A DNA stretch of 38,202 nucleotides from contig JAYTSD010000048.1 in NCBI GenBank assembly GCA_043745805.1, forward strand, positions 1 to 38,202. The letters run 5' to 3'. The stretch comes from Fibrobacteria bacterium. Lineage in GTDB: Bacteria; Fibrobacterota; Fibrobacteria; UBA11236. This document shows positions 9,472-38,085 of the stretch, one piece after another (the stretch's first letter is position 1; each line of letters begins with the position of its first letter). The notes below the pieces were generated by a model, which worked only from the letters and a program-made list of their open reading frames with translations, had not been told where the DNA came from and made no database searches. A program made the translations under genes and the position numbers.

Positions 9472-9476
9472 GGAGT

Positions 9477-10379
9477 TTAATTCGCCTCTATCAAGGCAAA
9501 GAAAGGTTCCGCTTCTTGAATTTGCTTATCTATTTCCGCTGCGAGTTCTTCGTCAGTAACGCCAAGATTGAGTAAGGCTTTTACTTCTTCAATTAAGGGT
9601 TGATAAATTTCATTAGTAACACAGCCGCTACCTCGAGTGTGACATAAATAATTTGCATAATGCACAATGGCTGCAACATCCCCATGTTCTTTAGCCTCTA
9701 ATGGAGAATGATGATGGATAATAGGGATTTTTAATTCGTCGGGCATTTGCCATTTTTCTACTAACATACCACTCACATCTGCATGCGTGAGCCCTAACAT
9801 TTCTTTTTCCACAATCACATTAGGGAGTTGTTTTTCTTTAGCTTTTTCTAAAACTGGAAGATAATCTTCATGAGCACATTGCTCTAAAATTAATTTGCCA
9901 ATATCATGCAAAAGGCCCGCACTAAAGGCTATTTCTAAATCAACCATTTTTCTTTTGCGATAAAATTGCGCTAAGCTGCGCGACACCACACCCACCATAA
10001 ATGAATGTTTCCAAAAGGCTTTTCTATCGAAGCCTGACACGCCAGGACGGCTAGGGAAAACTTTTAATACCGATGCTGAAAGCACTAAACTGCGAATGGT
10101 ATTAAAACCCAAAATCACAATGGCTGAATTTACCGAAGAAATAGAACGCGGTATGCCATAAAAGGCTGAATTAGCTAAACGCAAAACTTTAGACGTGAGT
10201 GCTAAGTCTCGTGAAATGAATTTTGCAACATCGTCCGCACTAGAGTGTTGATCATTAACGATTTGCATCACTTTAGCCGCAATAGTAGGCATAGTGGGAA
10301 TTTGGCCCAAATCCTGAATAATACGGGCATAACGTTTTTTAGGATCTTCGGTAGCTACACTTGTTTTTAATAAACCCAT
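9477..10379 (-). CDS. HDOD domain protein
   Basis: IPTMP, KVLRLANSAFYG, FWKHS, GLLHDIGK and KWQMP motifs. Confidence 0.92.
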   Translation of the reverse strand: MGLLKTSVATEDPKKRYARIIQDLGQIPTMPTIAAKVMQIVNDQHSSADDVAKFISRDLALTSKVLRLANSAFYGIPRSISSVNSAIVILGFNTIRSLVLSASVLKVFPSRPGVSGFDRKAFWKHSFMVGVVSRSLAQFYRKRKMVDLEIAFSAGLLHDIGKLILEQCAHEDYLPVLEKAKEKQLPNVIVEKEMLGLTHADVSGMLVEKWQMPDELKIPIIHHHSPLEAKEHGDVAAIVHYANYLCHTRGSGCVTNEIYQPLIEEVKALLNLGVTDEELAAEIDKQIQEAEPFFALIEAN

Positions 10380-18377: not shown

Positions 18378-21300
18378 GTGACCATCAAACCCATATTATT
18401 TCGGGCTCGCGCTTCAATATTAGGCCTTACCCTTGCTTCGACATTAATTCCCCCTTCCGCAGCCGCTTATTCCTTTAACCGCAATCAGGCGCATATTAAA
18501 TGGAAAGTTTCGGAAACCGAACATTTTCGCTTTAATTATCCCGCTGAAATTGAACCCGTAGCCGATTATGTGGCGGGTATTGCTGAAAGCGTAGCGGAAG
18601 ATAAACTCAAACGCTACAATATTCATTTCGATAATAAAGTTGAATTTATTTTGCGCGAAGATATTTTTTCCAATGGCTGGGCTAATTCTTTACAGAATAC
18701 CATGAATATTTGGATTACGGACTGGGATTTTCCCATTCGCAGCACGCATAATTGGCTTAAAGATGTCGTGACGCATGAATTTTCACATTTGGTTTCTATT
18801 CAAAGCAGCAGTAAGCTTCCCAGTTGGTTGCAAGGCTTATTCATTGGTTATCAGGATTTTTATAATGAAGCGAATCAAGCGTCTTTAGCCACCATTATTC
18901 CTTTTACTTCCCAGCCGGATTGGTTTGCTGAAGGCGTCGCACAATATGAAAGCGAACGTTCCGGCTTCGATGCTTGGGACTCCCACCGTGATATGATTTT
19001 ACGCATGGCTGTTTTGAACAATCAACTGATTGGCTTTGATCGCATGGGTAGTTTTGTCGGGTCAAGTTTACAATATGAACAAGGACCTTATACACAAGGC
19101 TTTGCGCTCACACGTTATATCTCTAGCAAATATGGTGATGAAGCCATGATTAAATTGTGGGCGGAAAATGCACGCATTCATCGACAAACACTCTCCGGTT
19201 CCATGCAAAGAGTTTTAGGAAAAACCGGCGATGAAGTGTGGGAAGATTGGAAAAATGAAATCACCAAAACTTATACCGAACAAGTTAAAGATTTAGGTCC
19301 ACAAATTACCGGACAAAAATTAACCAGCGGATGTTTTTATAATTATTACCCCAAATGGGATTCTAAAGGCCAGAGTCTGTTTTTTGTTTCGAATCAAGGT
19401 CGCAAAGATTTTCGCAGTGCTTTATATAAATACACCTTAGCCGATAGTAGTAAACCCGAAAAGGAACGTGACACCTTGGTTACGGCGGGTTTACGCAATT
19501 ATTTTGATGTCAATAAGGACGATAGTACTTTTTTGTTTTTTTCTGCCAAAGAAGAAGATAAAAATGGATCGCATAAATTCGACATTTATCAAACTAATGT
19601 GAGGCGTGAAGCGCCCTTTTTGGAATTCACCGACAAAACCGAAAAACGCTTTACCGAAAACTTAAATGCTGTACAAGCCAGCTACAATAAAGAAAAAAAC
19701 CAAATCGTTTTTATCAAACAAGTACAGTCCAATTTTCAACTCTGCACTGCTCCAGTTCCCGAGGGTAAAAAATTAAATGCCGAGGAGGTAAAAACCATCT
19801 TTCCATCCGATAGCATTTTACAAACTCGTTTTGGTTTTAATATTTATACACCGCGCTTTTCCCCCGATGGCAAAAATATTTTATTCTCTTATTTTGATGG
19901 CGCTTCGCGCAATATAGGCATGGTTCAAAGTGATGGCAAAAACTTCTCGCCATTGCTCGCCCAAACTTATGATGAACGCGATCCGGAATGGACCGCCGAT
20001 GGAAAGGCTTTTTATTTCTCTTCCGATAGTACCGGCATTTATAATATTTATCGCTATAACTTTGAGGCTAAAACTATTGAGTCTATTACTAATGTCGCCG
20101 GTGGCGCATTCTCTCCTGCCATTGATTCATCGGGACAAAAATTGGCCTACATCAATTATGATCAAGATGGATTTTCACTGTACTTGATCAAAGATTTAAA
20201 ACCTTCACTTAATGCTCCGCAAGCGCGCAAATGGGCGCATCCTGAAACGGCCACCATTGAAGCCATTGATTTAAGTAGTAAAAGTGAAAATTATATGGGA
20301 ACACCTAATCGTTACATCGTCAGCCCTTTATTAATCGGATCCGAAATGTCTTCCACGGATAGAACCGCTACTCAGGGCGAATTAAAATGGTTAGGTGGCT
20401 TTAATGGAATGATCAATGATCCGATAATGAAAAATGAAGTGTCCGGTGCTTTGCTCTTAGAATTGGGCAATGGTATTGATTATATAGGGCATAATAGCGA
20501 ACTTCTTTCCCCAGATAAAGAAAGTCAATTTTATTTAGGCATTGTGAATAATTCATTTCCGGTTTCCATAGGCGCACAGTTTTCCCGCGCGAATATTGCA
20601 TCGCATGATACTGTGCGTATTCAAAGCGCTACCGCCGATGATAAAGATCGTATTGAAAATCAAAACTATGCCGTAATCCTAAGAAATGCCGAAGCGCATT
20701 TACATTATAATTTATTCGATGCCTCCTCGACCGGTGAAAGCGAACAATCCAGTTATTTGCATTTAGCAGCAGGTTATAGTTGGAATGATTTTAATTTTTA
20801 TGATCTCGAATCGGGATCTTTTGCTTTCACCTATTTTAAAAACAATTATTATTCGGCACTATTACATTTTTATAGTCCGGTTTATTCCGATAAAGGAGAT
20901 GTGGCTCCGCTTGGCCTTGCAGCGTTTGCATCCTACATTTTCAATCAATCGCAATTACAAAGGCAAGGAACTTTTTTAGAAACCTTTGTTTTTTCCAATG
21001 GTGTTATCACCCCTTTATATCGCAATTATAATATTCAGGAAATGGATTTAGGCGCAAGTTATGCCTTGCCTTTACCTTGGTCGAAGTATAGCTCCGCTTT
21101 AATTACCGGATCGGCAGGAAGTATACTGGATTGGAAATACACTAATCGAGCGAATGCAATCGATACCTTGGATTCCTTTTTTTCGAAAGGTTTATTTCTT
21201 AGAGGTTACCCCTATTTACGCAATAATGAAAATCTTCAATTTCGTGGAGAGCATGTTGCCAAATTGAGTGTGGATATTAATCAAGCCTTAATTCCCAATA

Positions 21301-21719
21301 TTTATCAAGGCTATTGGATTTTCTTTATCGAGGACATATACGCCCATTTGTTTTGGGAAATGGGTCGCGCTTGGAATGGTAACTTATATGATACTCGTAT
21401 TTTTAACCCTACTTATTATGATGAAAATAAAAGGGCCGATAGCTGGGTACAAAGTTTAGGCTGGGGTTTAAAACTCAATGCCAAAAGCTATCACAATTAT
21501 CCTTTCCTTGTTTATTTAGAAATGGCCACGGGTCTGAATCGTGTTTTAGCTTCCGATGGAAAAGCTTTGGAAAAATTGGAAAGCATTAAGGTTTTATCCC
21601 TAGAAACTTTTGCGACACGCATTCGTTTTGGAATTTCTTTTGGTTTGGATAATGGTTTATTGAATCGTCCCAAAGCCGCCGTTCCTACGCAACGCAGCAA
21701 ACCCTTTTTTGCACATTAA
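18378..21719 (+). CDS. Exported protein: HExxH metallopeptidase-like domain, TolB/PD40 propeller and Omp85-like C-terminal barrel
   Basis: Signal peptide; VVTHEFSH and PDWFAEGVAQY; PRFSPDGK / PEWTADGK / PAIDSSGQ repeats; C-terminal LRGYP, LFWEMGRAW and SLGWGLK. Confidence 0.8.
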   Translation: MTIKPILFRARASILGLTLASTLIPPSAAAYSFNRNQAHIKWKVSETEHFRFNYPAEIEPVADYVAGIAESVAEDKLKRYNIHFDNKVEFILREDIFSNGWANSLQNTMNIWITDWDFPIRSTHNWLKDVVTHEFSHLVSIQSSSKLPSWLQGLFIGYQDFYNEANQASLATIIPFTSQPDWFAEGVAQYESERSGFDAWDSHRDMILRMAVLNNQLIGFDRMGSFVGSSLQYEQGPYTQGFALTRYISSKYGDEAMIKLWAENARIHRQTLSGSMQRVLGKTGDEVWEDWKNEITKTYTEQVKDLGPQITGQKLTSGCFYNYYPKWDSKGQSLFFVSNQGRKDFRSALYKYTLADSSKPEKERDTLVTAGLRNYFDVNKDDSTFLFFSAKEEDKNGSHKFDIYQTNVRREAPFLEFTDKTEKRFTENLNAVQASYNKEKNQIVFIKQVQSNFQLCTAPVPEGKKLNAEEVKTIFPSDSILQTRFGFNIYTPRFSPDGKNILFSYFDGASRNIGMVQSDGKNFSPLLAQTYDERDPEWTADGKAFYFSSDSTGIYNIYRYNFEAKTIESITNVAGGAFSPAIDSSGQKLAYINYDQDGFSLYLIKDLKPSLNAPQARKWAHPETATIEAIDLSSKSENYMGTPNRYIVSPLLIGSEMSSTDRTATQGELKWLGGFNGMINDPIMKNEVSGALLLELGNGIDYIGHNSELLSPDKESQFYLGIVNNSFPVSIGAQFSRANIASHDTVRIQSATADDKDRIENQNYAVILRNAEAHLHYNLFDASSTGESEQSSYLHLAAGYSWNDFNFYDLESGSFAFTYFKNNYYSALLHFYSPVYSDKGDVAPLGLAAFASYIFNQSQLQRQGTFLETFVFSNGVITPLYRNYNIQEMDLGASYALPLPWSKYSSALITGSAGSILDWKYTNRANAIDTLDSFFSKGLFLRGYPYLRNNENLQFRGEHVAKLSVDINQALIPNIYQGYWIFFIEDIYAHLFWEMGRAWNGNLYDTRIFNPTYYDENKRADSWVQSLGWGLKLNAKSYHNYPFLVYLEMATGLNRVLASDGKALEKLESIKVLSLETFATRIRFGISFGLDNGLLNRPKAAVPTQRSKPFFAH

Positions 21720-25552: not shown

Positions 25553-28500
25553 TTGAAAATAAACTGTTTTACTCCTAAATGGATTTTCCATTTTAATGCT
25601 GTTTGTATCGCTTTTGTTTTCATTACTTTGCTTACGGGTTGTGCTGACAAAAAGCAAATTGGAGAAGATTTTGCGAGTAATCGCATACAAGGTGTGCGCT
25701 TCGATCCTTCTTACTATTACAATCTTAAGCAACCTTTAGATAAATTCGCAGATTCAGCCATTGCCGTTTGGCAAGCACATGGCATTAACACGATTTTCTT
25801 TAAAGCCTATGATCCGCAATATGGCGCAGTATACAAAACCGGTTATAAATACAATGTGGAAACAGGATACAGTAAAAAAGATTTATTAAAACATTTTATA
25901 GACGCCTCCCATAAGCGCGGTATAAAGCTTATTGCTTGGCTACCCGTTTTTGAGCATAAGGGCGTATGGGAAAAGCGACCTGAATGGCGCATGAAAAATG
26001 CTGACGGGAGCGATTTATCCCCCTATCCTGATCAGCATTTTCTTTGCGTACGTCAGCCCGGATTTATTATTTGGTGGGAAGGTTTTTTAAAAGATATTTT
26101 AAAGCATTATCCCGAAATCGATGGCGTTGATTTTTCGGAGCCAACTATAGTTTGGAAAAATAAATTTGCTTGTCATTGTGATGTTTGTCGCAAAGAAATT
26201 GCAGAAGATACTCATGCTTTTAGCCCTGAAGCTATTGTAAAAAGAAGCCAAGGTCTAACGGATTTATTGCTGAGATCTTCCAAAATAGTGAAAGCCGCTC
26301 ATAAAATTGCTTGCCTTACATTTATTGCTACCGCAGATGCTCAGGCCAATCTTATGCCTTTTTCCAAACAAAAAGAATTAACCGGATTAGATTTGGATAA
26401 GTTACTGGATTCACAAGATAAACCTCAATGGCTATCTGCAGAATTAATGTGGCAACAATGGGCTAATATATATGAAAACCCAGCCACTTTTAAACCAGAC
26501 TGGACACAAAAGGCCGTTGAGCAAACCTTAGCGCAAATTAATAATCGTGTGCATTTACTAGCGCACGTGGAAATCACTCCGCTTGGAGCAGTTGAAGTTA
26601 GTCCGAACGAATTAGTAGAAAGCATAGTGGCCGCACGACGTGGTGGAGCACAGAGTATTGAGTTTTACGATACCCATTTAGCCGACAGCATGCAAGCGTG
26701 GTCTATTTTAGCCAAAGCTTGGCAAACACAAAGTGAACGTAAAGTTATGGTATATCATGATTCTTCGGGTGAAGGTGTCGCCATGCAAGTCGCTACGCTT
26801 TTCGGCCATTTTTCCATGGAAACCCATGTGTTACCCGTAGATTCATTTAATCTTAGTCAACTAAAACTAAATGACGTTGTGGCTTATGTGGGGACCTCAG
26901 AAACTGCTATACTCCCTGCTGATTTTTTAAACTTTGCACGACATCCTCAAAACAAATTATTTTGGCTGCATTTTAATTTACGACAATTGGAATATCCTTT
27001 AGCCGATAGCGAAAGAGCCCGTAAACCTGGCGACACGTCAAGGTTACATCTAGACACGACAAAATCTTTGGGAGCTTTTGCCAATTTAGGTTTTAAACAA
27101 GACGGCGTTTTGCGATCCAGCGAATTCAATACGGTGCTATATAACCATCAACAATTATTTAAAACGGATTCGGTATTTAACCTGATTAGCTTATTAGATA
27201 GCAATAGAGCCAAAATTCATGCCTATGCCAAAAGCCAAGCCGGAATATTGCGGCCCTATATTTTACAAAGCGGAAATTTTTGGTATGTGGCGGATTGCCC
27301 AACAGATTATATCACAGAAGGAGGTCGAGACATTGCCTTTGCCGATTTGCTTCATGAATTTGTTGGTGAAATTCATCCAGAAAAACACACGGGTTTAGTG
27401 CGTATTGAAGATGTTTGTCCGCTTAGTGATCCTCAATCGATCCGTCACCTTGCCGATATTCTTGCTTCGGAGGGTGCGCCATTTTCCATTGCGCTTGTTC
27501 CATTTTATGTCGATCCCGATGAAAATGTGGCCTATAGTTTAACTGACAAACCCGACTTAGTGAATGCGATCCATTATGCTATAAGTAAAGGGGCAAGCAT
27601 TGTCATGCATGGAACTACGCATCAATATAGAGGTCGTTCCACGCATGATTATGAATTTTGGGATGCTTTACATAATACGCCTATTTTTGAAGACTCCAAA
27701 GAATATGTGCGACTGCGTTTACGTAAAGGTATTGAAGAAATGCATCGCAATGGCATTTATCCTTTAGTATTCGAAACACCGCATTATGCCTGTTCCAATT
27801 TAGATTATTCGGTGATTGATCAATTTTTCAATGTGGAATACGGGCGTCGCCAAGTAATCGATAAAACCGGTTACGATCAATTGGTTCCTTATTTTATTGG
27901 GCGTCATCCTTCAGGCAATTCGATTATTCCCGAAAACTTAGGTTATGTGCCCAATGACAATCAAGACGCAACCCCTATTATCCGTTTTGCGCAAAATAAT
28001 TTAGCGGTACGCGATGGATTTGCCAGTTTCTTTTTTCATCCTTGGATTAAATCCAGTGTACTTAAAGAAATTGTACGAGGCTTAAAAAAGCAAGGCTATG
28101 TTTTTTCGGATATTCGCAATGTGCCTTTACGCATGACTTCCCCAGGTATTGTACAGGTTACTGGAAACCAAAATGTTACCTTTAAATCCAGCGGCCAATT
28201 TTTACACACTTTCTTCCTAGATCGAGAAGGAAAAAAACAAAAAGAATGGTATTCCGAAGCTCCCGTGGAGAGAGAATATAAACAAAACATAAGTTGTCCT
28301 CCGGGTTGGTCCTTTGTAGTAGAAGGGGTGAATAATAAACCGAAATGGTATTCTGGAATTTCTATTCCAAAATTCGCTTTCGCGCATACCTTGCGAGAAA
28401 AAATATTTGCCACGCCTCCCTTAGCTTTAAAACATGGGGCTCCTGCAAAACCTGTAATTCTCTGGCCTACCCAGGATAGTAATTTTGATGCTCAAACTTG

Positions 28501-30655
28501 GGCCAAGGCTTTTAAAATTTGCGGTATTGAAACCGATTCCTTGCCAGCCAATCAATTTTTAGATGTTCCCCAAGAAAACAATTTAGTGATCGTGCCTCAT
28601 CAAAGTGCGGCTCAACTTAGTACGCAACAAACCCTATTGCTTGCCCAGGCGATTGCCCAAGGGAAAAATATAATTCTTGAAGGAACTTCACCTCTTGCGG
28701 TGCAACTAGGTATACGCCCAATTAATTCTTCTAAAAAAACCAGTGACATTCGCGACGAATATTTACCGCAAGTAAAAATTCGCTTCCGTAGTCCTTTGGT
28801 CTATCAGCCTTTTGAAGCCGATGTGCAATATGTTGACCAATACGTTACCCCAAAAGGTGAACCCTTGGTGGCGGGTGGAGAATATGGAGAAGGTAAATAT
28901 CTTTATTTTGCAACTGATTTTGCGAACCCTATACAAGACACTAGTATAGATGGGAAAAGTGCTACACCCTATCGCTTTCCATTTTTCTTGGATTTGCTCG
29001 AAAGACAATTCGATTTGCATCCCGCTATACGTAATCCCAACTTAGAAGTCTATTTTGATCCCACTGGCCGGGAAAATATTCCGCTAGAAGAACTAGTAAA
29101 TTTATGGCATAAAAATGGAGTGCGGCTTGTACATGTGGCTGGCTGGCATGATTTCAGTACCTATACCTTTGAATATGGTTATTTCATAAATCTGTTACAT
29201 AAAAATGGCATCTCAGCCTATGCTTGGATTGATTTGCCTTATGTTTCCGAGCGCTTCTGGGAGGAGCATCCAAATTGGCGAGAAAAAACGGCTGCCGGAA
29301 AAGAAGCTGGGCTGGACGCTGGTAGTGGCTGGAAACTTTTCATGAATGTTACGAATGATACCGCTCGGGCCGGTGCATTTCATGCTATTAAGCGATTAAT
29401 CCTAATGGGACCTTGGGATGGTGTGAATTTAACTGGCAGTATTTTTACTGGAAATAATCCTGACTCCACAAAATATATTACTCCGTTTAATACCTCTTTC
29501 CGAGCTCAATACCAACGCGATAAAGGTTATGATCCTCAAGAAATATTTTCACCGGGTGACGCACACTGGTATAAATCTTCTGCAAAATACTGGAATGAAT
29601 TTCAAAATTATCGCGATTCCATTGCGCAATCTATAACCCATGAAGCGATTGTTTTTTTAGAAAAGCAATCGCCATTTCAAAAATCTGGATCGGAAATTAT
29701 TTTAACGCGCCGACTCGATAGCACAACTACGCGTGCGGATTCATTATACCGAGAATTATTAGAAAAAGATTCTGTGGTGGTTTTACAAGCAGAAATGAGT
29801 CACACTTCCAAAATGAATGCTTTTCTTTTAAATCAAAAGATTGAAACCATAAAAAATAAATTTCCAGCCTGGAAACCTATGTTGGAAATAAATATGGACA
29901 AACAAAAACCTGCGAGTGAGGAAACGCCGCAACTTTGTGGAATGGAATTAATGGACATGATGGCGACTGCGGGAAAATGGGGGCGCTTGTCTCTGCGCAA
30001 TGAAGACAATGTTTATGATGTTGATTTTCATAATTTGGCTTTTGCCACCGCTGTACCCGTTCAAGAAAATTATACTCAAGAGGGTTGGACCATAAATTCC
30101 TCGAATAGAAGTTGGTTGGACTTGAGTGAAGTGAAGAATCCCGAAGTTATGCTGGATGGTCGTATTTGGCCCGTATATGAAAAAGGCCATTTATTATTGC
30201 CCGAAGGAAAACATTTTATAGAAGGCTGTTCCAAATTTACTAGTTGGAAAACTCTTTTGCTTTCGCCTGTCGAAGTCACTCAATTCAATGGCATTATCCA
30301 AGATGCTCAATCCACTTTGCAGGGATTAAAATTAAATTATCGCGCCATAGGGGTAGCTTCTTTGGTACTGTCACAAAATCCAAAAGAGGTCTATTTAGAT
30401 GGCCTTCCTTATTTGACAGAATCTCCTGCACCGAATAATACGCAAACCCTACTGAAAGATGGCGTATTAGAACTACCAGCTGGTACTCATGAAGTGGAAA
30501 TTCTCACACGTACTTTAGGGCATTCGATAATGAGGCAAGCCAGTATTGGTTTATCCGCTTTAATTATTGGAATTAGTTCCCTCATGGTTTCAGCCTTCAC
30601 TTTATTATATCTGGGTGGGCTTATCAAGCGCCTCTGGCATGGAGCTACTCGATGA
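25553..30655 (+). CDS. 1700-aa multidomain polysaccharide-modifying lipoprotein: GH-like TIM barrel, DUF2334 (YdaL/PssB-like) deacetylase, second GH-like barrel, C-terminal TM helix
   Basis: TTG start with GGAG SD; lipobox LTGC (Cys30); GINTIFFKA..HKRGIKLIAWLP..DGVDFSE; LVRIEDVCP..MHGTTHQY..FETPHY..FFFHP; HKNGISAYAWIDLP..WDGVNL; hydrophobic C-terminal helix followed by KR. Confidence 0.85.
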   Translation: MKINCFTPKWIFHFNAVCIAFVFITLLTGCADKKQIGEDFASNRIQGVRFDPSYYYNLKQPLDKFADSAIAVWQAHGINTIFFKAYDPQYGAVYKTGYKYNVETGYSKKDLLKHFIDASHKRGIKLIAWLPVFEHKGVWEKRPEWRMKNADGSDLSPYPDQHFLCVRQPGFIIWWEGFLKDILKHYPEIDGVDFSEPTIVWKNKFACHCDVCRKEIAEDTHAFSPEAIVKRSQGLTDLLLRSSKIVKAAHKIACLTFIATADAQANLMPFSKQKELTGLDLDKLLDSQDKPQWLSAELMWQQWANIYENPATFKPDWTQKAVEQTLAQINNRVHLLAHVEITPLGAVEVSPNELVESIVAARRGGAQSIEFYDTHLADSMQAWSILAKAWQTQSERKVMVYHDSSGEGVAMQVATLFGHFSMETHVLPVDSFNLSQLKLNDVVAYVGTSETAILPADFLNFARHPQNKLFWLHFNLRQLEYPLADSERARKPGDTSRLHLDTTKSLGAFANLGFKQDGVLRSSEFNTVLYNHQQLFKTDSVFNLISLLDSNRAKIHAYAKSQAGILRPYILQSGNFWYVADCPTDYITEGGRDIAFADLLHEFVGEIHPEKHTGLVRIEDVCPLSDPQSIRHLADILASEGAPFSIALVPFYVDPDENVAYSLTDKPDLVNAIHYAISKGASIVMHGTTHQYRGRSTHDYEFWDALHNTPIFEDSKEYVRLRLRKGIEEMHRNGIYPLVFETPHYACSNLDYSVIDQFFNVEYGRRQVIDKTGYDQLVPYFIGRHPSGNSIIPENLGYVPNDNQDATPIIRFAQNNLAVRDGFASFFFHPWIKSSVLKEIVRGLKKQGYVFSDIRNVPLRMTSPGIVQVTGNQNVTFKSSGQFLHTFFLDREGKKQKEWYSEAPVEREYKQNISCPPGWSFVVEGVNNKPKWYSGISIPKFAFAHTLREKIFATPPLALKHGAPAKPVILWPTQDSNFDAQTWAKAFKICGIETDSLPANQFLDVPQENNLVIVPHQSAAQLSTQQTLLLAQAIAQGKNIILEGTSPLAVQLGIRPINSSKKTSDIRDEYLPQVKIRFRSPLVYQPFEADVQYVDQYVTPKGEPLVAGGEYGEGKYLYFATDFANPIQDTSIDGKSATPYRFPFFLDLLERQFDLHPAIRNPNLEVYFDPTGRENIPLEELVNLWHKNGVRLVHVAGWHDFSTYTFEYGYFINLLHKNGISAYAWIDLPYVSERFWEEHPNWREKTAAGKEAGLDAGSGWKLFMNVTNDTARAGAFHAIKRLILMGPWDGVNLTGSIFTGNNPDSTKYITPFNTSFRAQYQRDKGYDPQEIFSPGDAHWYKSSAKYWNEFQNYRDSIAQSITHEAIVFLEKQSPFQKSGSEIILTRRLDSTTTRADSLYRELLEKDSVVVLQAEMSHTSKMNAFLLNQKIETIKNKFPAWKPMLEINMDKQKPASEETPQLCGMELMDMMATAGKWGRLSLRNEDNVYDVDFHNLAFATAVPVQENYTQEGWTINSSNRSWLDLSEVKNPEVMLDGRIWPVYEKGHLLLPEGKHFIEGCSKFTSWKTLLLSPVEVTQFNGIIQDAQSTLQGLKLNYRAIGVASLVLSQNPKEVYLDGLPYLTESPAPNNTQTLLKDGVLELPAGTHEVEILTRTLGHSIMRQASIGLSALIIGISSLMVSAFTLLYLGGLIKRLWHGATR

Positions 30656-30697
30656 AAAAATCTTTTTGCCATTTGATGTTATTAATTTCACAGTCTA

Positions 30698-32014
30698 ATG
30701 TTTTTTGTCCTCGGAGGCAACTTGCCATATTCTAGTCCTATTTTAGAATTTCTCTTTCTTTTCTCAGTTATCATTATATGGGGTATGATTGTCTTCAATC
30801 TTATTTTAACATGGGGAGGCTATGTCTATCGTCGCAAGTTTTATAAAGGCGATCATGAAATCTTAGCGACGGATGACGAGTTACCTGCAGTATCCGCCAT
30901 GATACCTGCGCGTAATGAAGAAATGGTGATTGAAAAAACCGTACGTGCCCTTTTAGCCATGGACTATCCTAAGGATAAATTCGAAGTCATTGTTATCAGC
31001 GATAAGAGCACAGATAAAACCACGGAAATTGTCGACCGTTTAGCTTTAGAAGATCCCCGCGTGCGCTGTTTGTCTTGGCCTCCTGCCGAAAGAGGCAGTG
31101 GCAAGCCATATGCTCTAAACGAAGGGCTGAAACTTTGCCGTTACCCCGTCATCGCTATATATGATGGTGACAATAATCCCCGACCGGAATCTTTACGTAT
31201 ACTTTGCACTCGAATGGTGCGCAATGCAAACCTTACTGCTGTACTGGGTAAATTCCGCTGTATCAATCGCAATAAAAATCTTTTAACACGTATGATAAAT
31301 ATTGAAACCCTAAGCTTTCAGTGGATGATACAAGCTGGACGTTATTGGTTTTCCAAGTTCGCTATTTTGCCTGGCACCAATTATATCATCAAGCGCGAAG
31401 CTCTCGATGCAGTGGGAGGCTGGGATGAAAAAGCGATCACCGAAGATTCCGAACTTTCCGTACGTTTACAAATGGAAGGCTATGAAGTGCAATTTGTGCC
31501 GACGGCTGTGACTTGGGAACAAGAACCGGAAACGCTAAAGGTTTGGATTAAGCAGAGAACACGCTGGGTGCGTGGTAATAATTATGTTTTGAAAAAATTT
31601 GCCAAACCCGCTTTAAAATTTAAGAACCGCCATCTAACGACAGAATTTCTCTACATGTTTGGATTATATTATCTCTTCCTCACATCGACCGTACTCTCCC
31701 ATTTGATTTTTATTTTAAGTGCCTTTGGTGTTATTAGTCTGGATATTCCTGGACCTTATACCGCAGTTTGGATATCTGCCTATGCTATGTATCTCGCCGA
31801 AATTTTCTTTGTGCTTTCGTATGAGCGAGAAGATACTTTTGGTAACCTACTCGTTACTGCCTTAATGTATTTTACTTATTGCCAACTGTGGATTTACGTG
31901 GTATTCAAATCGCTATGGATGGATTTCACTCGCAATCGCGTCGGTGTTTGGGATAAAACAGTGCGTTTCAAAACGGATGCAGCACCTGTGCCTGAACCGG
32001 GAACAAAGGCTTAA
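30698..32014 (+). CDS. Processive family 2 glycosyltransferase, YdaM/PssC-like polysaccharide synthase (alternative start TTG 30722)
   Basis: D,D,D,QxxRW signature (DKSTD, YDGD, TED, QRTRW); GKFRCIN..LLTRMINIETLSFQW, PGTNY, TWEQEPETLKVW, MYFTYCQLW and WDKTVR recall YdaM; GGAGG precedes TTG 30722. Confidence 0.92.
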   Translation: MFFVLGGNLPYSSPILEFLFLFSVIIIWGMIVFNLILTWGGYVYRRKFYKGDHEILATDDELPAVSAMIPARNEEMVIEKTVRALLAMDYPKDKFEVIVISDKSTDKTTEIVDRLALEDPRVRCLSWPPAERGSGKPYALNEGLKLCRYPVIAIYDGDNNPRPESLRILCTRMVRNANLTAVLGKFRCINRNKNLLTRMINIETLSFQWMIQAGRYWFSKFAILPGTNYIIKREALDAVGGWDEKAITEDSELSVRLQMEGYEVQFVPTAVTWEQEPETLKVWIKQRTRWVRGNNYVLKKFAKPALKFKNRHLTTEFLYMFGLYYLFLTSTVLSHLIFILSAFGVISLDIPGPYTAVWISAYAMYLAEIFFVLSYEREDTFGNLLVTALMYFTYCQLWIYVVFKSLWMDFTRNRVGVWDKTVRFKTDAAPVPEPGTKA

Positions 32015-32024
32015 AGGTCTCGGG

Positions 32025-33218
32025 GTGAGAAAAAATATTTTTTGCTTTTTAATTTTAGGCTGTAGTATTTTAATCCAAGCCCAAGTTGGATTAGAGGATC
32101 CCGAAGAGCCCGAAATTACCCCATCAATGGTGCAAGATTCTTCATCAGCTACAAACTCAGCTGAGGTAACTGCACCATTACTATGGATGGATCTTTATTC
32201 CGAAGGCGTTTATGATAAAGAAGAAGAAAGAAACACTTCCGGGTTTATGGCCATGCAATTGGGTAAACGTTTCGACTTTTTTTTGCCCATCGATATATAT
32301 GGAAAAGCCCATTTTGACCGGGATATACAAAATAAGTATTGGAATAATCGTACAGATTTAGGCTTTGGTTATCGCATTTCTTTCCTGCAAAAAATGTCTT
32401 TACAGTTTTTCCAAGAAATTCGTTGGGGACAATATTTGCGCAAGGATAACACTCAATTGTCTTTGCAATCCGTGCAAAATAATTCTGGAAAAATTCGTGA
32501 GACCATCGCCAACATGGAGAATCAGTATCGCAGCCTTGAACAACAAAATTTTTATTTGAATAGCCTCGGTATCCCAGTTGAAGGAAAAGCATTACAACAA
32601 AGTTTAGATTCTTTGAAAACAGCATTTTCTCATGTCAATAGTTCTTTGGATAGCCTAGATGCTGCCAAAGATAGCTTGCAACAAGTAGCGGACAGTATTG
32701 CCTTGATTCCTACGGGAACTTTCATGGACATTAAAACTGGTTTGGTATTTTGGACGGGTTGGGGAAAAAATGGCGTATTTAATAATTGGATTGGATTTCC
32801 CTTTCGTTTTTGGGGAGACGTTTATGCCGAAGGAATTTTTTCCTTTCATACTCGAAAAGTGCTGCAACGCAATGCACAAAATAATTATCAAGATAGTAGT
32901 ATTAGATTAATGAATTTTGTGTTTTATGTGAACCCCGATTTAGGTTTTGTGATGGCAGAAGGTAAATGGGGGATGTTAATTAATTATGCCACGGCTTATG
33001 CTTCTTATGACACACATCGTGACTGGTGGAATCGCAAAATTATGGGCGGTCCGGGAATACGCTGGGAGCCAGCGAGTTCTTTAAATTTTGCTTTGTGTGC
33101 TGAGTATTTGTGGGGAAATTATTTTGGAGAAAATCGCACAGAAGATCCAAACCCAAATGATAAACAATTTACTGATTTACGCCTTTCCGCAAACTTTTGG
33201 TATGGACTAGGCATTTGA
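32025..33218 (+). CDS. Predicted outer-membrane beta-barrel with internal two-fold repeat and a coiled-coil insertion (start reassigned to GTG 32025)
   Basis: GTG with AAAGG upstream gives signal peptide MRKNIFCFLILGCSILIQA; aromatic-rich amphipathic strands; ends LRLSANFWYGLGI. Confidence 0.7.
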   Translation: MRKNIFCFLILGCSILIQAQVGLEDPEEPEITPSMVQDSSSATNSAEVTAPLLWMDLYSEGVYDKEEERNTSGFMAMQLGKRFDFFLPIDIYGKAHFDRDIQNKYWNNRTDLGFGYRISFLQKMSLQFFQEIRWGQYLRKDNTQLSLQSVQNNSGKIRETIANMENQYRSLEQQNFYLNSLGIPVEGKALQQSLDSLKTAFSHVNSSLDSLDAAKDSLQQVADSIALIPTGTFMDIKTGLVFWTGWGKNGVFNNWIGFPFRFWGDVYAEGIFSFHTRKVLQRNAQNNYQDSSIRLMNFVFYVNPDLGFVMAEGKWGMLINYATAYASYDTHRDWWNRKIMGGPGIRWEPASSLNFALCAEYLWGNYFGENRTEDPNPNDKQFTDLRLSANFWYGLGI

Positions 33219-33231
33219 TCTTGGAGGATAT

Positions 33232-34674
33232 ATGTTTCGCTTGCTTGTGACTTTTGTTTTTTTTACAACTGTATTGATAAATTCCATCTTCGCAAAACCT
33301 GGAGATGAGCTTTGGAGGTTTGCCGCGGACTCCGTATTATTAATTCAGGCGTCATCAGATATTTCTGCTCCCAGTAATGGTGGTCAAGATCTCATCGTAG
33401 GTAGCGGCTATGATACTCTCTATATGGTAGAAGGTCGTGGAAATGCGTCTGGTGGACAATTATGGTCTATTCCCTTTTTAGCCTCAATTAGTGCCACGGA
33501 AGCAATACCCGATATTAGCGGAGATGGTCGCGCCGATGTGGCCGCAGGCGACGAAAGAGGTTTAATCACCATGGTATCTGGTGGCAGTGGTCACGCTTTT
33601 TGGAAATACTTAACCTTCGTTGAAGGAACCATTTTAAGTATTATACATATACCTGATATCAACGGCGATGGCAAGGAAGAGATAGTATTCGGAAGCCAAA
33701 ACGATACCGTTTATTGTTTGTCGGGAGCTATCAATGGAATGACCGAAAATGATGCCTTTCCAAAATTAGGACAAGTGCTTTGGAAATTTTCCACCTTTGA
33801 TGGTAAAGTACATGGGAAACCTAAAATAGCCGCAGCCCCTCCCAGTACCGCAATAGCAAGCGGTGCAAATAGCTTGTCCTTAATTCATCAGGGAAATACA
33901 AGTTACGGTATAGCCATTGGTAGCAGTGGTGGCGATTCATTATTTTTAATTAAACCTGATGGAAGCAGCGTGTTATGGAAAAAACAAATGCCCGGCGATG
34001 TATGGAAAGTAAAAGCTTTTCCTGATGTAGATAATGATGGTGGCGAAGAAGTATTAATTGCGGACGGTGCCGATTCGGCTTATTTATTTTCCGGTTTAAC
34101 CGGTAATTTACTTTGGTCTTTACCAGTAACTTCCGGAGCAACAGCAATTGCGATTGCTGGAGATATTAACGGGGATGGGAAAGCCGATGCTTTTGTAGGA
34201 GATGGAAATGGTAAAGTGTATGCGGTATCGGGAGCCGCACGTGGCCACGGTGTTACCTCATTATGGATCTATGATTTTTTAGATGGAAGTACTATAACCG
34301 CATTGGCTGCATTGCCAGATGTCACGGGAAATAGTTTTTCGGAATGCGTTGTAGGTACTTCTTCTAACTTACTTACGGTTCTAAATGATACCGGAAAGAA
34401 GTCCTGGTCAGTAAATATGGGTGGTACTGTTAACGCTGTAACCGCCCTAGCGGCTCCCGCCGATAACGGCTTTGCCACAGTAGTAGCCGGAACCAATATG
34501 GGCTTTGCCGCAGCCTATCAAGGAGGCGATGGAAAACCCTTATCCATATTCTCTGTTTCAAAATCATATTCTTCCCAACAAAAAAACAAACGCCATAATT
34601 TGTTAGGCCAGAATCTTGGACTGATTAATACCAAGTCAAAAGCCGTTGGAAAATATTTCTCAACTTCCCATTAA
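33232..34674 (+). CDS. Secreted FG-GAP/PQQ-like beta-propeller protein
   Basis: GGAGG SD; signal peptide; repeated DISGDGRAD, DINGDGKEE, DVDNDGGEE, DINGDGKAD Ca-binding loops and G..LW motifs. Confidence 0.85.
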   Translation: MFRLLVTFVFFTTVLINSIFAKPGDELWRFAADSVLLIQASSDISAPSNGGQDLIVGSGYDTLYMVEGRGNASGGQLWSIPFLASISATEAIPDISGDGRADVAAGDERGLITMVSGGSGHAFWKYLTFVEGTILSIIHIPDINGDGKEEIVFGSQNDTVYCLSGAINGMTENDAFPKLGQVLWKFSTFDGKVHGKPKIAAAPPSTAIASGANSLSLIHQGNTSYGIAIGSSGGDSLFLIKPDGSSVLWKKQMPGDVWKVKAFPDVDNDGGEEVLIADGADSAYLFSGLTGNLLWSLPVTSGATAIAIAGDINGDGKADAFVGDGNGKVYAVSGAARGHGVTSLWIYDFLDGSTITALAALPDVTGNSFSECVVGTSSNLLTVLNDTGKKSWSVNMGGTVNAVTALAAPADNGFATVVAGTNMGFAAAYQGGDGKPLSIFSVSKSYSSQQKNKRHNLLGQNLGLINTKSKAVGKYFSTSH

Positions 34675-34687
34675 AAAGAAAGCTATC

Positions 34688-35815
34688 ATGGAAAAACCCA
34701 ATATTGCTGTTGTTTTTGGTACTCGTCCTGAAGCCATTAAAATGGTCCCCGTTATTCAAGCCTTAAAACGTGAAAATCAATTGCGTGTTACCGTGGTCTC
34801 TACGGGACAACATCGACAAATGTTGCATCAAATTTTACAACGCTTTGAAATCGAAGTTGATTATGAAATGGACTTAATGGAGCCCAATCAAAGTTTATAT
34901 CGTCTAAGTAGCAAAGCCATTGCTGCTTTCGAAAAAGTTTTGCAAGAAAGTAAACCGTCCATGTTACTAGTGCAAGGTGATACCACTACCGCTTTTTTAG
35001 GAGCACTCTGCGCTTTTTATGCCAAGGTTCCGGTAGGTCATGTGGAAGCGGGTTTGCGCACAGATAATAAATATTTTCCTTTTCCCGAAGAAGTGAATCG
35101 TCGGCTAATTACGGTTTGTGCCGATCTTAATTTTTGTCCCACTGAAGGCAATCGCCAAAATTTAATTACGGAAAATGTTCCGGCAAAAAGTATTTTTGTT
35201 ACGGGCAATACGGGTATCGATACTTTATTATTAGCTACACGCACTTCAGCTGCCGTAGCATTTCCTTTTCCCGAACTTGATTTGCATGAAAAGCGTTTGG
35301 TTTTGGTCACCATTCATCGTCGCGAAAGTTTTGGAGAACCCTTAAAAGAAATTTTTCTCGCGGTACGTGAACTGGCACAGAGCTATCCCGATTTAGTCAT
35401 TGTTTATCCCGTGCATTTAAATCCTAATGTACAACAACCAGCACGCGATATTCTAGGCGATGTTCCCAATGTACATTTGGTAGCACCTTTGGATTATTTT
35501 GATTTTGTGCAAGTGATGAATCGCGCTTATCTTATTCTTACCGATTCAGGTGGTGTGCAAGAAGAAGCACCCACATTAGGAGCACCCGTATTAGTATTGC
35601 GAAATGAAACGGAAAGACCGGAAGCTGTGGAAGCCGGCACCGTTCGTTTAGTAGGCACTAAGCGCGAAAATATTTTGTTGCATGCTAAAATGATTTTGGA
35701 AAATGAGGCTGAGAGAAATAAACTTTGCAGCGCTTCCAATCCTTATGGCGATGGAAAAGCCTCCCCTAAAATTGTGAGCGAAATTCTGAAATACTTTGGA
35801 TTAAACAAAGCCTAA
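34688..35815 (+). CDS. wecB: UDP-N-acetylglucosamine 2-epimerase (non-hydrolysing); start reassigned to ATG 34688
   Basis: FGTRPEAIKM, TGQHRQML, VQGDTTT, HVEAGLRT, PFPEE, TIHRRE, TDSGGVQEEAP, TERPE and NPYGDG motifs. Confidence 0.97.
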   Translation: MEKPNIAVVFGTRPEAIKMVPVIQALKRENQLRVTVVSTGQHRQMLHQILQRFEIEVDYEMDLMEPNQSLYRLSSKAIAAFEKVLQESKPSMLLVQGDTTTAFLGALCAFYAKVPVGHVEAGLRTDNKYFPFPEEVNRRLITVCADLNFCPTEGNRQNLITENVPAKSIFVTGNTGIDTLLLATRTSAAVAFPFPELDLHEKRLVLVTIHRRESFGEPLKEIFLAVRELAQSYPDLVIVYPVHLNPNVQQPARDILGDVPNVHLVAPLDYFDFVQVMNRAYLILTDSGGVQEEAPTLGAPVLVLRNETERPEAVEAGTVRLVGTKRENILLHAKMILENEAERNKLCSASNPYGDGKASPKIVSEILKYFGLNKA

Positions 35816-35820
35816 TTGTT

Positions 35821-35851
35821 TGCGGGCTGAAATTTCCGCATTCAGCCCGCA
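35821..35851 (+). terminator. GC-rich hairpin after wecB (possible atypical terminator or processing site)
   Basis: TGCGGGCTGAA-9 nt-TTCAGCCCGCA perfect 11-bp stem 5 bp after the stop; no U-tract follows. Confidence 0.55.
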
Positions 35852-35881: not shown

Positions 35882-35977
35882 CATTTTTGTTAAAAACAAA
35901 AATGTGAAGCGCTTGCGCAAATGGCTTTCCAGGGAATAGCATACATGAGGGTTATGTATGCTAATTTTGTTAAAAAC
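35882..35977. promoter_or_regulatory. Two perfect 10-bp inverted repeats plus a 13-bp direct repeat; candidate operator region
   Basis: CATTTTTGTT-3-AACAAAAATG (35882-35904); TAGCATACAT-7-ATGTATGCTA (35937-35963); TTTTGTTAAAAAC at 35885 and 35965. Confidence 0.5.
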
Positions 35978-36006
35978 CTTGTCTGCTTTGTGTGCTTAGA
36001 GACTTT

Positions 36007-38085
36007 ATGCATTTAAGCCGCTCTGTACTTATTGTTAAACGCGCTATGGATATTAGCATAGGATTTTTTGGATCCTTATTTTTTATTTCAAGTTACCCCC
36101 TTATCGCATTATTCATCAAACTGGAATCTAAGGGTCCTGCACTTTATAGTCAAGAGCGCATTGGCATGAATGGACGTACTCCCCGCCGACGTAACAAAGG
36201 CGGCACGGAAAATGCCGATCCCTATTCCGTCTTGCGTAAAAAAGACGTAGGTGGCAAGCCTTTTATTATTTACAAATACCGCAGCATGTTTACCGATGCC
36301 GAAAAAAATGGACCTCAGTTAGCGGGTAATGGACGTGATCCACGTATCACTACCATTGGCTGGTGGCTGCGCGCTTTGCATCTCGATGAATTGCCCCAGT
36401 TCTGGAATATTTTAAAAGGCGATATGAGTTTTATTGGACCGCGTCCCGAAAGAGCTTATTTCACGGTGCAATTTGCGGAAAGTATTCCGCATTATAAGCA
36501 ACGTACTTTGCATATTCGTCCCGGATTAACAGGCCTCGCACAAATTAATTTGGGCTATGATGATTCTTTAGCGAGCGTAGTGCGCAAATCTTTTTATGAC
36601 TATTCGTATCGCGCTTCTTTTTGTTCCTTTAAAGCGTGGATTCGTTTAGAGGGATGGATAATATGGAATACTTTTGGCTATCTTCTTAAGCCGCCTAAAA
36701 AAGAAGGGGAGGTACGCGACCTCGAAACCTTAAAGCGCGCCAAAGCCTTGCCCTTTTCGGCACGTTCATCGGAAAAAGAAGGCGCTAGCAAAAAAAATTC
36801 TGTGGTTAACTTGCAAGATACCTCATTGTCTTCCACACTTTTTTCCACACACTCTTCAATTTTGGAAATCAAAAAATCAAATTCCTTTGCGAGTAAATTG
36901 GATGTGCAATTTCGCGGACATAAACATTTAGAAGTTTCCTTTACCCCAGATGTGAATTTTGATCTGGAGGACTTAGGTTTTTTAATTGAGGTGGCGCAAA
37001 AAGTAAAAAGTATTGGAGGAGCTATTAGCATTAAAAATTGTTCCTCTACGGTACGACATATGTTGGAAGAAATTCATCTCGATAAAGTGATTGAAATTAA
37101 ACGTCCGCATCGACCTGTGCAAAATTTTATGACTATAGATGTAGAGTGCTGGTTTCATGCTTTTAATATGCAAGGACAATCGCCGGCATCGACTTGGCAT
37201 CAACAGGAAACGCGCATCATTAATAATATCGAACGCATTCTCACTATGTTGCGCAAACATAATACCGAAGCCACCTTTTTTATTTTAGGTTGGGTGGCGG
37301 ATCATTTTCCCGAAGTGGTGCGCATGATTGATAAAGAAGGTCATGAAATTGGCACGCATGGTTATTATCATAAACTCATCACCGATATGACTCCATCTGA
37401 ATTCGAAGCGGATTTAATGAAATCGTTGGAAGCTATTTCTCGCCATACTTCCCAAAAAATATTAGGGCATCGCGCTTCCAATTTTAGCGTTGTGGAAAAA
37501 ACTTTATGGTCCTTAGATATAGTAGCGCGTAATGGCTTAACTTATGATTCCAGCATTTTCCCTATTCAACGCGACCGTTATGGCATTCCCCATTATCCCA
37601 ATCGCTTGCCTCATCGGATTCTATTATCTGACAATCGTCAACTCGCGGAATTCCCTATGTCTACACTGGGTGTGGGTAAAAAATTTATGCCCTTAACCGG
37701 CGGTGGTTATTTACGGCTGTTTCCACATACCGTAACCGAGATGTTTCTGGAAATGAAAAACAAAAAACATCAGCCCGTGATGATGTATTTTCATCCTTGG
37801 GAATTAGATGTAGAACAAGAACGTCACAATTTAGGCATGCTAAAAACTTTTCAACATTATGTGAATTTGCATACTACGGAATGGAAATTGGAAAGATTAT
37901 TAGAAAAATTTTCTTTTACTTCGATTCGTAGAAATATGGAAACCCGTTCTGTGGCCGCGATGTTAAATCGAAATCCCGTGCGTATACTGGATGAAATTTC
38001 TTTGAATCAACAAGAGCGGCCAATGGCTAAGCCTTTGCTTAATTTTCCGAAAAAAGATTTAGGCGAAGTGGGGATTAATATTTAA
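36007..38085 (+). CDS. Fusion: bacterial sugar (phosphoglycosyl) transferase, STAS-like domain, DUF3473-type polysaccharide deacetylase (start ATG 36007 or GTG 35992)
   Basis: KRAMDI, KYRSM, DPRIT, LDELPQFWNILKGDMSFIGPRPE; LGFLIEVAQKVKSIGGAISIKNCSSTVRHMLEEIHLDKVI; TIDVE, ATFFILGW, HEIGTHGYYH, YDSSIFP, GGGYLR, YFHPWELD. Confidence 0.9.
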   Translation: MHLSRSVLIVKRAMDISIGFFGSLFFISSYPLIALFIKLESKGPALYSQERIGMNGRTPRRRNKGGTENADPYSVLRKKDVGGKPFIIYKYRSMFTDAEKNGPQLAGNGRDPRITTIGWWLRALHLDELPQFWNILKGDMSFIGPRPERAYFTVQFAESIPHYKQRTLHIRPGLTGLAQINLGYDDSLASVVRKSFYDYSYRASFCSFKAWIRLEGWIIWNTFGYLLKPPKKEGEVRDLETLKRAKALPFSARSSEKEGASKKNSVVNLQDTSLSSTLFSTHSSILEIKKSNSFASKLDVQFRGHKHLEVSFTPDVNFDLEDLGFLIEVAQKVKSIGGAISIKNCSSTVRHMLEEIHLDKVIEIKRPHRPVQNFMTIDVECWFHAFNMQGQSPASTWHQQETRIINNIERILTMLRKHNTEATFFILGWVADHFPEVVRMIDKEGHEIGTHGYYHKLITDMTPSEFEADLMKSLEAISRHTSQKILGHRASNFSVVEKTLWSLDIVARNGLTYDSSIFPIQRDRYGIPHYPNRLPHRILLSDNRQLAEFPMSTLGVGKKFMPLTGGGYLRLFPHTVTEMFLEMKNKKHQPVMMYFHPWELDVEQERHNLGMLKTFQHYVNLHTTEWKLERLLEKFSFTSIRRNMETRSVAAMLNRNPVRILDEISLNQQERPMAKPLLNFPKKDLGEVGINI

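Follow-up and report, generated by a model that had tools for sequence, protein, structure and literature searches.

A PssC-group glycosyltransferase and a 1700-residue multi-domain protein form the core of a proposed surface-polysaccharide system in Fibrobacterota and other phyla

Introduction

What is built by a cluster of five genes in the genome of a Fibrobacteria bacterium, and to which of the known polysaccharide export systems is it related? The cluster lies at positions 25,553 to 35,815 of a stretch of 38,202 nucleotides (contig JAYTSD010000048.1 of assembly GCA_043745805.1), which was analyzed at its full length and is termed the window here. The source assembly (G000) has a size of 3.95 Mb and is 99% complete, the locus is on its contig C48, and the nearest relatives of this genome carry the label Fibrobacterota. 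The five genes encode a large multi-domain protein, a family 2 glycosyltransferase (GT2), a predicted outer-membrane beta-barrel, an FG-GAP beta-propeller and WecB, a UDP-N-acetylglucosamine (UDP-GlcNAc) 2-epimerase (Table 1). A first, sequence-only reading proposed that they are a new two-membrane (diderm) counterpart of the Yda system of Bacillus subtilis and the Pss system of Listeria. We consider it rather likely that this is a synthase-dependent surface-polysaccharide operon and that its product is a partly de-N-acetylated polymer of N-acetylmannosamine (ManNAc). Our statements on published systems draw on passages of the papers cited.

The GT2 synthase

The best characterized match of the GT2 is PssC of Listeria (43.5% identity, 348 bits over 416 columns), the glycosyltransferase of the Pss system (PMC4125290); the PssC sequence was picked as the best match among annotated records of a plasmid collection, where it stands in a pssABCDE context. 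PgrC of Acinetobacter baumannii matches at 34.8% (260 bits) and Acinetobacter GT2s at 35-37%. Identities are 27.8% with PgaC (E = 1e-33), 23% with BcsA and 21% with NfrB. The PgaC/IcaA model scored the GT2 at 166 bits, well under its cut-off of 422.3, and the CelA cut-off was not reached either. The longer motifs that had been quoted in support of a Yda/Pss relationship are present in both the window protein and Listeria PssC, and the motifs DxD, TED and QxxRW (QRTRW in the window) show no or almost no variation across 38 aligned rows.

Phylogenetic trees (LG+G4) were built with 31 and 22 rows, YdaM not among them, and with outgroups that are few and long-branched. The window group is placed beside PssC with support of 83/81 in the larger tree and 78/77 in the smaller. 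In approximately unbiased (AU) tests, grouping with PgaC was rejected (p 0.0017); rejections were weaker for BcsA (p 0.034) and NfrB (p 0.049) and marginal for the Acinetobacter pair that includes PgrC (p 0.047). A clade of PssC, PgrC and NfrB, supported at 91/85 in the 31-row tree, was not recovered in the 22-row tree, and we do not retain it. As the sequence-only reading had anticipated, identities, trees and AU tests all place the GT2 nearest to PssC rather than to PgaC or BcsA, and on these sequence comparisons we assign it to the PssC group.

The open reading frame (ORF) that had been called from 30698 is present, and the true start is probably the TTG at 30722, because relatives begin at residue 9 and this codon is preceded by GGAGG 4 nt upstream. 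The same broad group contains GT2s of the Bacillus cereus group and Priestia (L094:5174-7227 and L096:5276-8240; 34-36% identity). These are located behind a degenerate cyclase-like gene, with neither DUF2334 nor BcsB adjacent and, in Priestia, with a GH8-like neighbor.

The large multi-domain protein

Pfam models identify DUF2334 (aa 615-843, E = 1.4e-49) and GHL6/GHL10 (aa 76-339) in the large protein; phmmer searches with the entire protein gave chance matches only. The DUF2334, GT2, propeller and WecB families had all been named correctly in the sequence-only reading, which left the GHL6/GHL10 domain unnamed. Profile-to-profile (HH) comparison shows that two stretches, residues 45-390 and residues 1160-1500, form TIM barrels homologous to each other (E = 8.5e-18). 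The first of them, which is restricted to the 1650-1800 aa form of the protein, matches E. coli PgaB at E = 5.4e-5. The top fold match of the second is the glycoside hydrolase domain of PgaB (Z 21.8, root-mean-square deviation (rmsd) 4.4, 307 residues aligned), and the model of the C-terminal half also matches PelA and Agd3. The model of residues 960-1700 (predicted local distance difference test, pLDDT, 90) is made up of an alpha/beta domain and the second barrel, together with two beta domains and a long helix at the C-terminus. Reading by eye shows a Cys of lipobox type in the Fibrobacterota rows, in two further rows and mostly not elsewhere.

A DGxxxxE motif has a conserved Glu that the profile alignment pairs with D466 of E. 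coli PgaB, which, judging from the HD motif, probably corresponds to D474 of Bordetella PgaB, the probable catalytic acid (PMC5933820). The Glu in the first barrel (Glu196) is invariant in 19 of 19 rows. At the equivalent position of the second barrel Glu is found in 51 of 56 rows, and the five rows with Gly are all from Fibrobacterota (Gly1295 in the window). Because Glu196 is kept and Gly1295 replaces Glu, the first barrel looks active in this lineage and the second is probably a non-catalytic binding groove.

In the DUF2334 domain, E619-D620, H686, H690, E741, H744 and H829 are invariant in all 56 rows, which are 34-64% identical to the window protein. Of these residues, E619-D620, H686, H690 and H829 may represent the Asp-His-His metal triad and the flanking catalytic acid and His of a CE4-like polysaccharide deacetylase. 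The kinship of this module with PssB, proposed at the outset, is confirmed (HH E = 4.8e-7), PssB itself being without the metal residues, and relatives of the module are often named YdaL by JGI. Outside the family, its closest look-alikes are polysaccharide deacetylases, with scores < 0.9 that we treat as leads only. We thus regard DUF2334 as a putative metal-dependent de-N-acetylase.

When the GT2 was co-folded with aa 1495-1700, as had been suggested, the two were joined via the membrane helix with a score of 0.70, the best control scoring 0.00. This passes a mark that is reached by 116 of 157 solved pairs and 2 of 215 mismatched pairs; contact agreement between runs was at least 93% and partner pLDDT at least 69. 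In the prediction, the C-terminal helix packs against two helices of the GT2 (14-42 and 350-379). The model supports docking of the helix on the GT2, and it may reflect a likeness to BcsA-BcsB. We propose, as a working model, that the large protein is a co-synthase and a polymer-modifying scaffold.

Barrel, propeller and epimerase

The product of the third gene was modeled, in agreement with the initial proposal, as a 12-stranded barrel (pLDDT 86.6). A helical hairpin of 85 residues is inserted between strands 5 and 6 and is missing in homologs of ~290 aa. Fold matches are to autotransporter barrels and small porins, generic for 12-14 strands (best Z 13.1, rmsd 6.1, 225 residues aligned); no polysaccharide porin stood out in this search, and searches of the Atlas returned only unnamed barrel clusters with low recognition. 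The barrel profile matches the gene for a barrel with tetratricopeptide repeats (TPRs) in two Acinetobacter loci (E = 4e-28 and 4e-24, positions 24-326 of 330). With the same profile PgaA, BcsC and YaiO remained unmatched, E. coli NfrA reached E = 0.31 only and Ralstonia NfrA E = 5e-4; the NfrA_C model was weakly matched by 5 of 29 barrel homologs (best E = 8.8e-5). Pfam searches detected no TPR in the window barrel. Homologs also occur in Planctomycetota, Sumerlaeota and others. On this model and profile evidence, the protein is assigned to the PgrG family of outer-membrane barrels.

The window propeller has a short basic tail only. Its homologs in KSB1-like loci end in FlgD_ig/Por_Secre_tail domains, and G000 encodes SprA; the propeller is therefore probably an accessory cargo of type IX secretion (T9SS), rather than a part of the periplasmic scaffold. 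A BamB-like periplasmic role was rejected on account of the same sorting domains. WecB matches TIGR00236 with 472 bits (cut-off 210).

Occurrence in other genomes

A set of 84 loci was assembled from the window, three further loci (L002, L004 and L006) and the best 80 of at least 586 GTDB relatives, after three duplicates were dropped. Among the fully flanked loci, 15 are of a long form, where the large protein has 1650-1800 aa, and 38 of a short form (~1310-1400 aa); these loci are kin, and the counts do not represent independent events. The long form is found in Fibrobacterota and in a group whose KSB1-like label is our inference, the short form in genomes labeled Ignavibacteria, Bacteroidota, Acidobacteriota and others.

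The large-protein gene is directly upstream of the GT2 gene in 79 of the 84 loci, and the GT2 gene is at a contig end in the other 5. Numbers of loci with the remaining genes are lower (wecB 33, barrel 25, propeller 24, against 79 for the large protein). The universal core thus has two members, GT2 and large protein, and barrel, propeller and wecB are variable. All long-form loci have the barrel and the propeller (15/15 each) and 13 of 15 have wecB. In the short form wecB is present in 14/38 loci, a different barrel-like gene in 17/38 and the window's barrel in 0/38; Ignavibacteria, Bacteroidota and Acidobacteriota have a form reduced to the two core genes. Across phyla, wecB is found upstream or downstream of the core, in varied positions and orientations.

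The complete five-gene order recurs in G249, G252, G253, G040 and G248 and is thus more than a chance arrangement (the G256 locus is broken by a contig end); KSB1-like genomes share this order. Conservation of the gene set applies to the full order in relatives and, more widely, to the two core genes only. Of 296 genomes examined in the window's phylum, 8 were found to contain the GT2 (G000 and G254 among them) and 7 the barrel, each of these 7 being a GT2 carrier. Samples of two other phyla contained 29/151 and 18/301 positive genomes, query centers included.

Several variants of these loci were observed. A second, unrelated barrel-like family (420-500 aa) is encoded after or near the GT2 in the 17 short-form loci mentioned above (for example L040:11271-12575, L057:11263-12537 and L053:11209-12555); it shows weak SlipAM matches and a conserved GKGKG loop, and is often followed by a propeller of the YCF48 type that bears a T9SS tail. 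Acidobacteriota loci have, between the GT2 and wecB, a third small protein of 260-285 aa with a signal peptide, a beta-rich sequence and an aromatic-alternating last strand (L084:11190-12047, L062:2865-3692, L042:11268-12041); zero Pfam matches were obtained for the two copies scanned. Spare copies of the window-type barrel (L106:3483-4682 on G248:C169 and L107:6185-8448 on G256:C165) are located on contigs other than that of the GT2. They are close to the rlmL-like and epimerase genes that flank the window operon, one of them together with wecB, and the G248 site also carries an ortholog of the window gene at 35992, which suggests rearrangement around an old site. Finally, one protein of 929 aa (P0222) combines the DUF2334 and GT2 Pfam families in a single chain, a possible natural fusion of core parts.

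Relationship to known systems

The Pss polymer is beta-1,4-ManNAc with galactose (Gal) branches (PMC13492145). As in Pss and Yda, the DUF2334 sequence is encoded directly upstream of the GT2, here fused into the 1700-aa protein, and the DUF2334 protein is anchored at its C-terminus; for Yda, this likeness is drawn from paper passages and JGI names. Pss and Yda are monoderm systems and the window system is diderm; they have the BcsB-like subunit PssD/YdaN, the degenerate GGDEF receptor PssE/YdaK, the membrane protein PssA and the hydrolase PssZ/YdaJ, none of which was found in the window operon, and PssB is degenerate whereas the window DUF2334 is intact. Both systems require their operon-encoded cyclic di-GMP (c-di-GMP) receptor (PMC4125290, PMC5422440).

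These absences were searched for at several levels. The BcsB model (PF03170) had no match in G000, while E. coli and B. subtilis were positive, and PssD, PgrD and BcsB queries matched 0 of 2807 ORFs of the 84 loci. No GGDEF domain was detected on the scanned window proteins, and the seven GGDEF matches of G000 are all on other contigs; at the other loci a GGDEF receptor was not found with single-sequence queries, which are insensitive. Queries with PssA and the Enterococcus GH8-like neighbor had no match in the loci or G000, and the operon has no spare ORF. PgaA, BcsB, BcsC and YaiO gave no match.

The PGR system of Acinetobacter baumannii, comprising the GT2 PgrC, the BcsB-like PgrD, PgrE, the WecB protein PgrF and the porin PgrG, was described in 2025 as necessary for adsorption of phage StAb3, and a ManNAc-containing glycan has been proposed as its product (PMC12507263). 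It shares with the window a diderm envelope, a PssC-like GT2, WecB and a barrel of the same family. PgrE (DUF4434) resembles the PgaB C-terminus, and the TIM barrels of the window protein are PgaB-like by fold; the profile comparison of the two gives no match (E = 0.4). PGR has the BcsB-like PgrD, the degenerate cyclase-like PgrA and TPRs on its barrel and lacks DUF2334, whereas in the window a single 1700-aa protein stands in for these components, the barrel is free of TPRs and a propeller is present in addition. The GT2s of PGR loci (L095:4405-12325, identified as PGR from its annotation and the order of its genes and not from a locus tag, and L093:5350-14116) are 38-39% identical to Listeria PssC and 28-29% to PgaC; from these sequences PGR looks like a diderm relative of Pss, and the main text of the PGR paper makes no mention of Listeria (PMC12507263).

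The E. coli NGR system depends on WecB (PMC8669472), and each of PGR and NGR needs this protein (PMC12507263, PMC8669472). NGR (nfrB-nfrA-ybcH with wecB) resembles the proposed window system in its WecB-dependent exported glycan. It differs in its GT2, NfrB, which is only distantly related (21%) and carries an MshEN c-di-GMP domain that is absent from the window GT2, and in the long TPRs of NfrA. A Ralstonia megaplasmid locus (L104:2946-11396) has the order nfrB-nfrA-wecB-hypothetical-DUF2334-hypothetical with a GGDEF gene nearby. Its DUF2334 protein is intact, stands alone and is 31% identical to aa 406-857 of the window protein. Among Ralstonia records, 136 gave a DUF2334 match. Judging from its sequence, this locus is a version of NGR that includes a probable deacetylase.

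With the poly-N-acetylglucosamine (PNAG; PgaABCD), Pel and cellulose systems the window shares, in its general layout, a processive GT2, a periplasmic deacetylase/hydrolase (PgaB, PelA; putative in the window), a predicted outer-membrane barrel and a BcsB-like helix anchor. It differs from PNAG and cellulose synthases in its GT2, which is under the PgaC and CelA cut-offs and for which sister grouping is rejected.

In summary, the window system works like Pss and PGR and is a member of neither, because the BcsB-like subunit and the GGDEF-type protein, by which both are partly defined, are missing. The claim that a diderm counterpart was undescribed did not hold: PGR has a PssC-like GT2, WecB and a homologous barrel, and the gene sets with which the locus had been compared (Bcs, Pga, Pel and Alg) omitted both PGR and NGR. 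A diderm PssC-type system that has WecB and a barrel of this family had thus been described before. The present architecture was not found in print, in a search that covered an incomplete library, and the main text of the epsSMASH paper makes no mention of Pss or NGR.

Proposed pathway and alternatives

We propose the following pathway, and infer its localization and regulation. WecB, whose family assignment is clear, would make UDP-ManNAc for this pathway. The GT2, with its conserved motifs and kinship to PssC, would polymerize a ManNAc-containing chain across the inner membrane, most likely in beta-1,4 linkage as in Pss. According to the model, the large protein would use its C-terminal helix to dock on the GT2 and would replace BcsB-like PssD/PgrD; DUF2334 would strip some of the N-acetyl groups, the first TIM barrel would trim the chain and the degenerate second would guide it. 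The modeled 12-stranded barrel, as its homology to PgrG suggests, would then pass the chain through the outer membrane. In the weakest step, the propeller, exported by T9SS, might bind the polymer or surfaces.

A number of observations weigh against this pathway, some of which concern the sugar. Placement of the GT2 as sister to PssC is modestly supported and starred in neither tree, and GT2 kinship is a poor predictor of the sugar, as stated for PssC itself (PMC4125290). The Yda polymer of B. subtilis was reported, from binding of an alpha-Gal/N-acetylgalactosamine (GalNAc) lectin, to contain alpha-Gal and/or GalNAc (PMC13274460). The genome has only two matches to 2-epimerases, of which the window WecB is one, and this enzyme may act in other pathways; wecB is missing in 24 of the 38 fully flanked short-form loci. 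The same machine might accordingly act on another sugar (GlcNAc-, GalNAc- or Gal-containing), with wecB as a frequent passenger or side branch, a reading with which the likeness of the TIM barrels to the PNAG hydrolase PgaB, and of the C-terminal half to PelA and Agd3, would also agree. We consider this unlikely, if still worth serious attention, since wecB is retained beside the locus in several positions, orientations and phyla, the nearest characterized GT2s, PssC and PgrC, are ManNAc-linked, and grouping with PgaC is rejected.

Other observations concern the deacetylation. PssB has lost the metal residues, so Pss-type polymers do not depend on such an activity. The putative assignment of DUF2334 draws on motifs and look-alikes; the literature search found no DUF2334 enzyme, and a profile search of the PDB found no solved relative of the module at E <= 1. 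The second barrel, which has lost acidic residues in the window, matches PgaB weakly by sequence (E = 0.03), and its fold match to PgaB is tied with GH35/GH42. The degenerate PssB, the lost acidic residues and the negative literature search would fit a ManNAc polymer that stays fully acetylated, with DUF2334 and the TIM barrels binding or chaperoning it or performing other chemistry. The invariance of all seven putative metal and catalytic residues makes this improbable. In a further reading, which is very improbable, the operon makes a short oligomer or a glycan that stays in the periplasm or bound to a membrane, and barrel and propeller are optional neighbors rather than a route of export: the universality of the two core genes alone, the lack of either tested barrel near 21 of the 38 fully flanked short-form loci, the spare barrel copies away from the GT2 in G248 and G256 and the narrow pores of 12-stranded barrels in general speak for it, and against it stand the homology of the barrel to PgrG, from a locus with a phage-receptor product, and the filling of the slot after the GT2 by three unrelated barrel-like proteins in different lineages.

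Extending the proposal of a partly de-N-acetylated ManNAc polymer, we tentatively suggest that the window may hold the type locus of an unrecognized branch of ManNAc-polymer synthases in FCB-group phyla and Acidobacteriota, making cationic poly-mannosamine with no operon-encoded c-di-GMP switch. It is possible, if doubtful, that in Fibrobacterota one protein serves as co-synthase, deacetylase and hydrolase, held by an N-terminal lipid and a C-terminal inner-membrane helix; that it also spans the periplasm as a substitute for a TPR scaffold is a similarly speculative suggestion. If this is true, Pss/Yda, PGR and the present locus would be one family of interchangeable parts and DUF2334 would be the first poly-ManNAc de-N-acetylase. 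Apart from this reading, the locus links Listeria Pss, Acinetobacter PGR and E. coli/Ralstonia Nfr, which were described separately, by shared parts. The minimal two-gene core allows a PssC-type synthase to be studied without BcsB and gives DUF2334 a testable function, and largely uncultured phyla (29/151 sampled genomes in one) gain a candidate for a matrix polymer and for a phage receptor. Synthase-dependent export keeps its basic scheme.

Gene layout and neighboring genes

The operon consists of five ORFs with zero internal stops, all on the + strand, and the tight spacing reported from the sequence alone was reproduced, with intergenic gaps of 42, 10, 13 and 13 bp with the starts of Table 1. 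By tblastn, the first four genes are single-copy in G000, distant GT2s aside. The hairpin that had been noted behind wecB is present (core at ~35821-35851; -21.8 kcal/mol, z -5.1, equaled by 0 of 200 shuffles); it was not among the calls of the terminator scan. The scan did call the second hairpin (z -5.0).

Table 1. Features of the operon and its 3' flank in the window.
Feature	Position	Strand	Basis and remarks
Large multi-domain protein, 1700 aa	25553..30655	+	ORF calls, Pfam, profile matches
Signal peptide with lipobox LTGC, Cys30	25553..25642	+	read by eye
N-terminal PgaB/GH153-like TIM barrel (GHL6/GHL10)	25685..26722	+	Pfam, profile, conservation
YdaL/PssB-like module: accessory domain and DUF2334	26729..28147	+	Pfam, HH, conservation
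Alpha/beta domain, in homologs GH42 trimerization/class I glutamine amidotransferase-like	28430..29032	+	model, Pfam
Second PgaB/GH153-like TIM barrel	29030..30052	+	fold search, HH
C-terminal membrane helix (predicted)	30515..30637	+	model, co-fold
GT2 synthase, PssC group, 438 aa	30698..32014	+	Pfam, alignment, trees; probable start 30722
Predicted outer-membrane beta-barrel, PgrG family, 397 aa from GTG	32025..33218	+	structure model, profile
FG-GAP beta-propeller with signal peptide, 480 aa	33232..34674	+	Pfam FG-GAP/PQQ_2
WecB, non-hydrolysing UDP-GlcNAc 2-epimerase, 375 aa from ATG	34688..35815	+	TIGR00236
G+C-rich hairpin	35821..35851	+	no U-run, directly 3' of wecB stop
Second hairpin, T-rich tail, terminator-like	35937..35963	+	terminator scan

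Recent transfer of the locus into this genome was rejected, given its genome-like GC content (0.38-0.43 in the locus, 0.40 in the genome) and the same flanking genes in relatives. The gene that follows (35992-38085) encodes a protein in which a bacterial sugar transferase is fused with an XrtA-system polysaccharide deacetylase and a STAS-like stretch. We considered it as a member of the system and rejected it: it adjoins the GT2 in a single one of the 84 loci and has a paralog, 54% identical, on contig C8 of the same genome. Elsewhere in the window, 18378-21719 encodes a protein of 1113 aa with a peptidase MA domain, PD40 repeats and a barrel-like C-terminus, and 10551-13979 a probable lipoprotein of 1142 aa that has five cadherin-like repeats as well as a C-terminal domain that is repeated. 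A tandem pair of stand-alone HDOD proteins is encoded on the - strand at 8620-10379.

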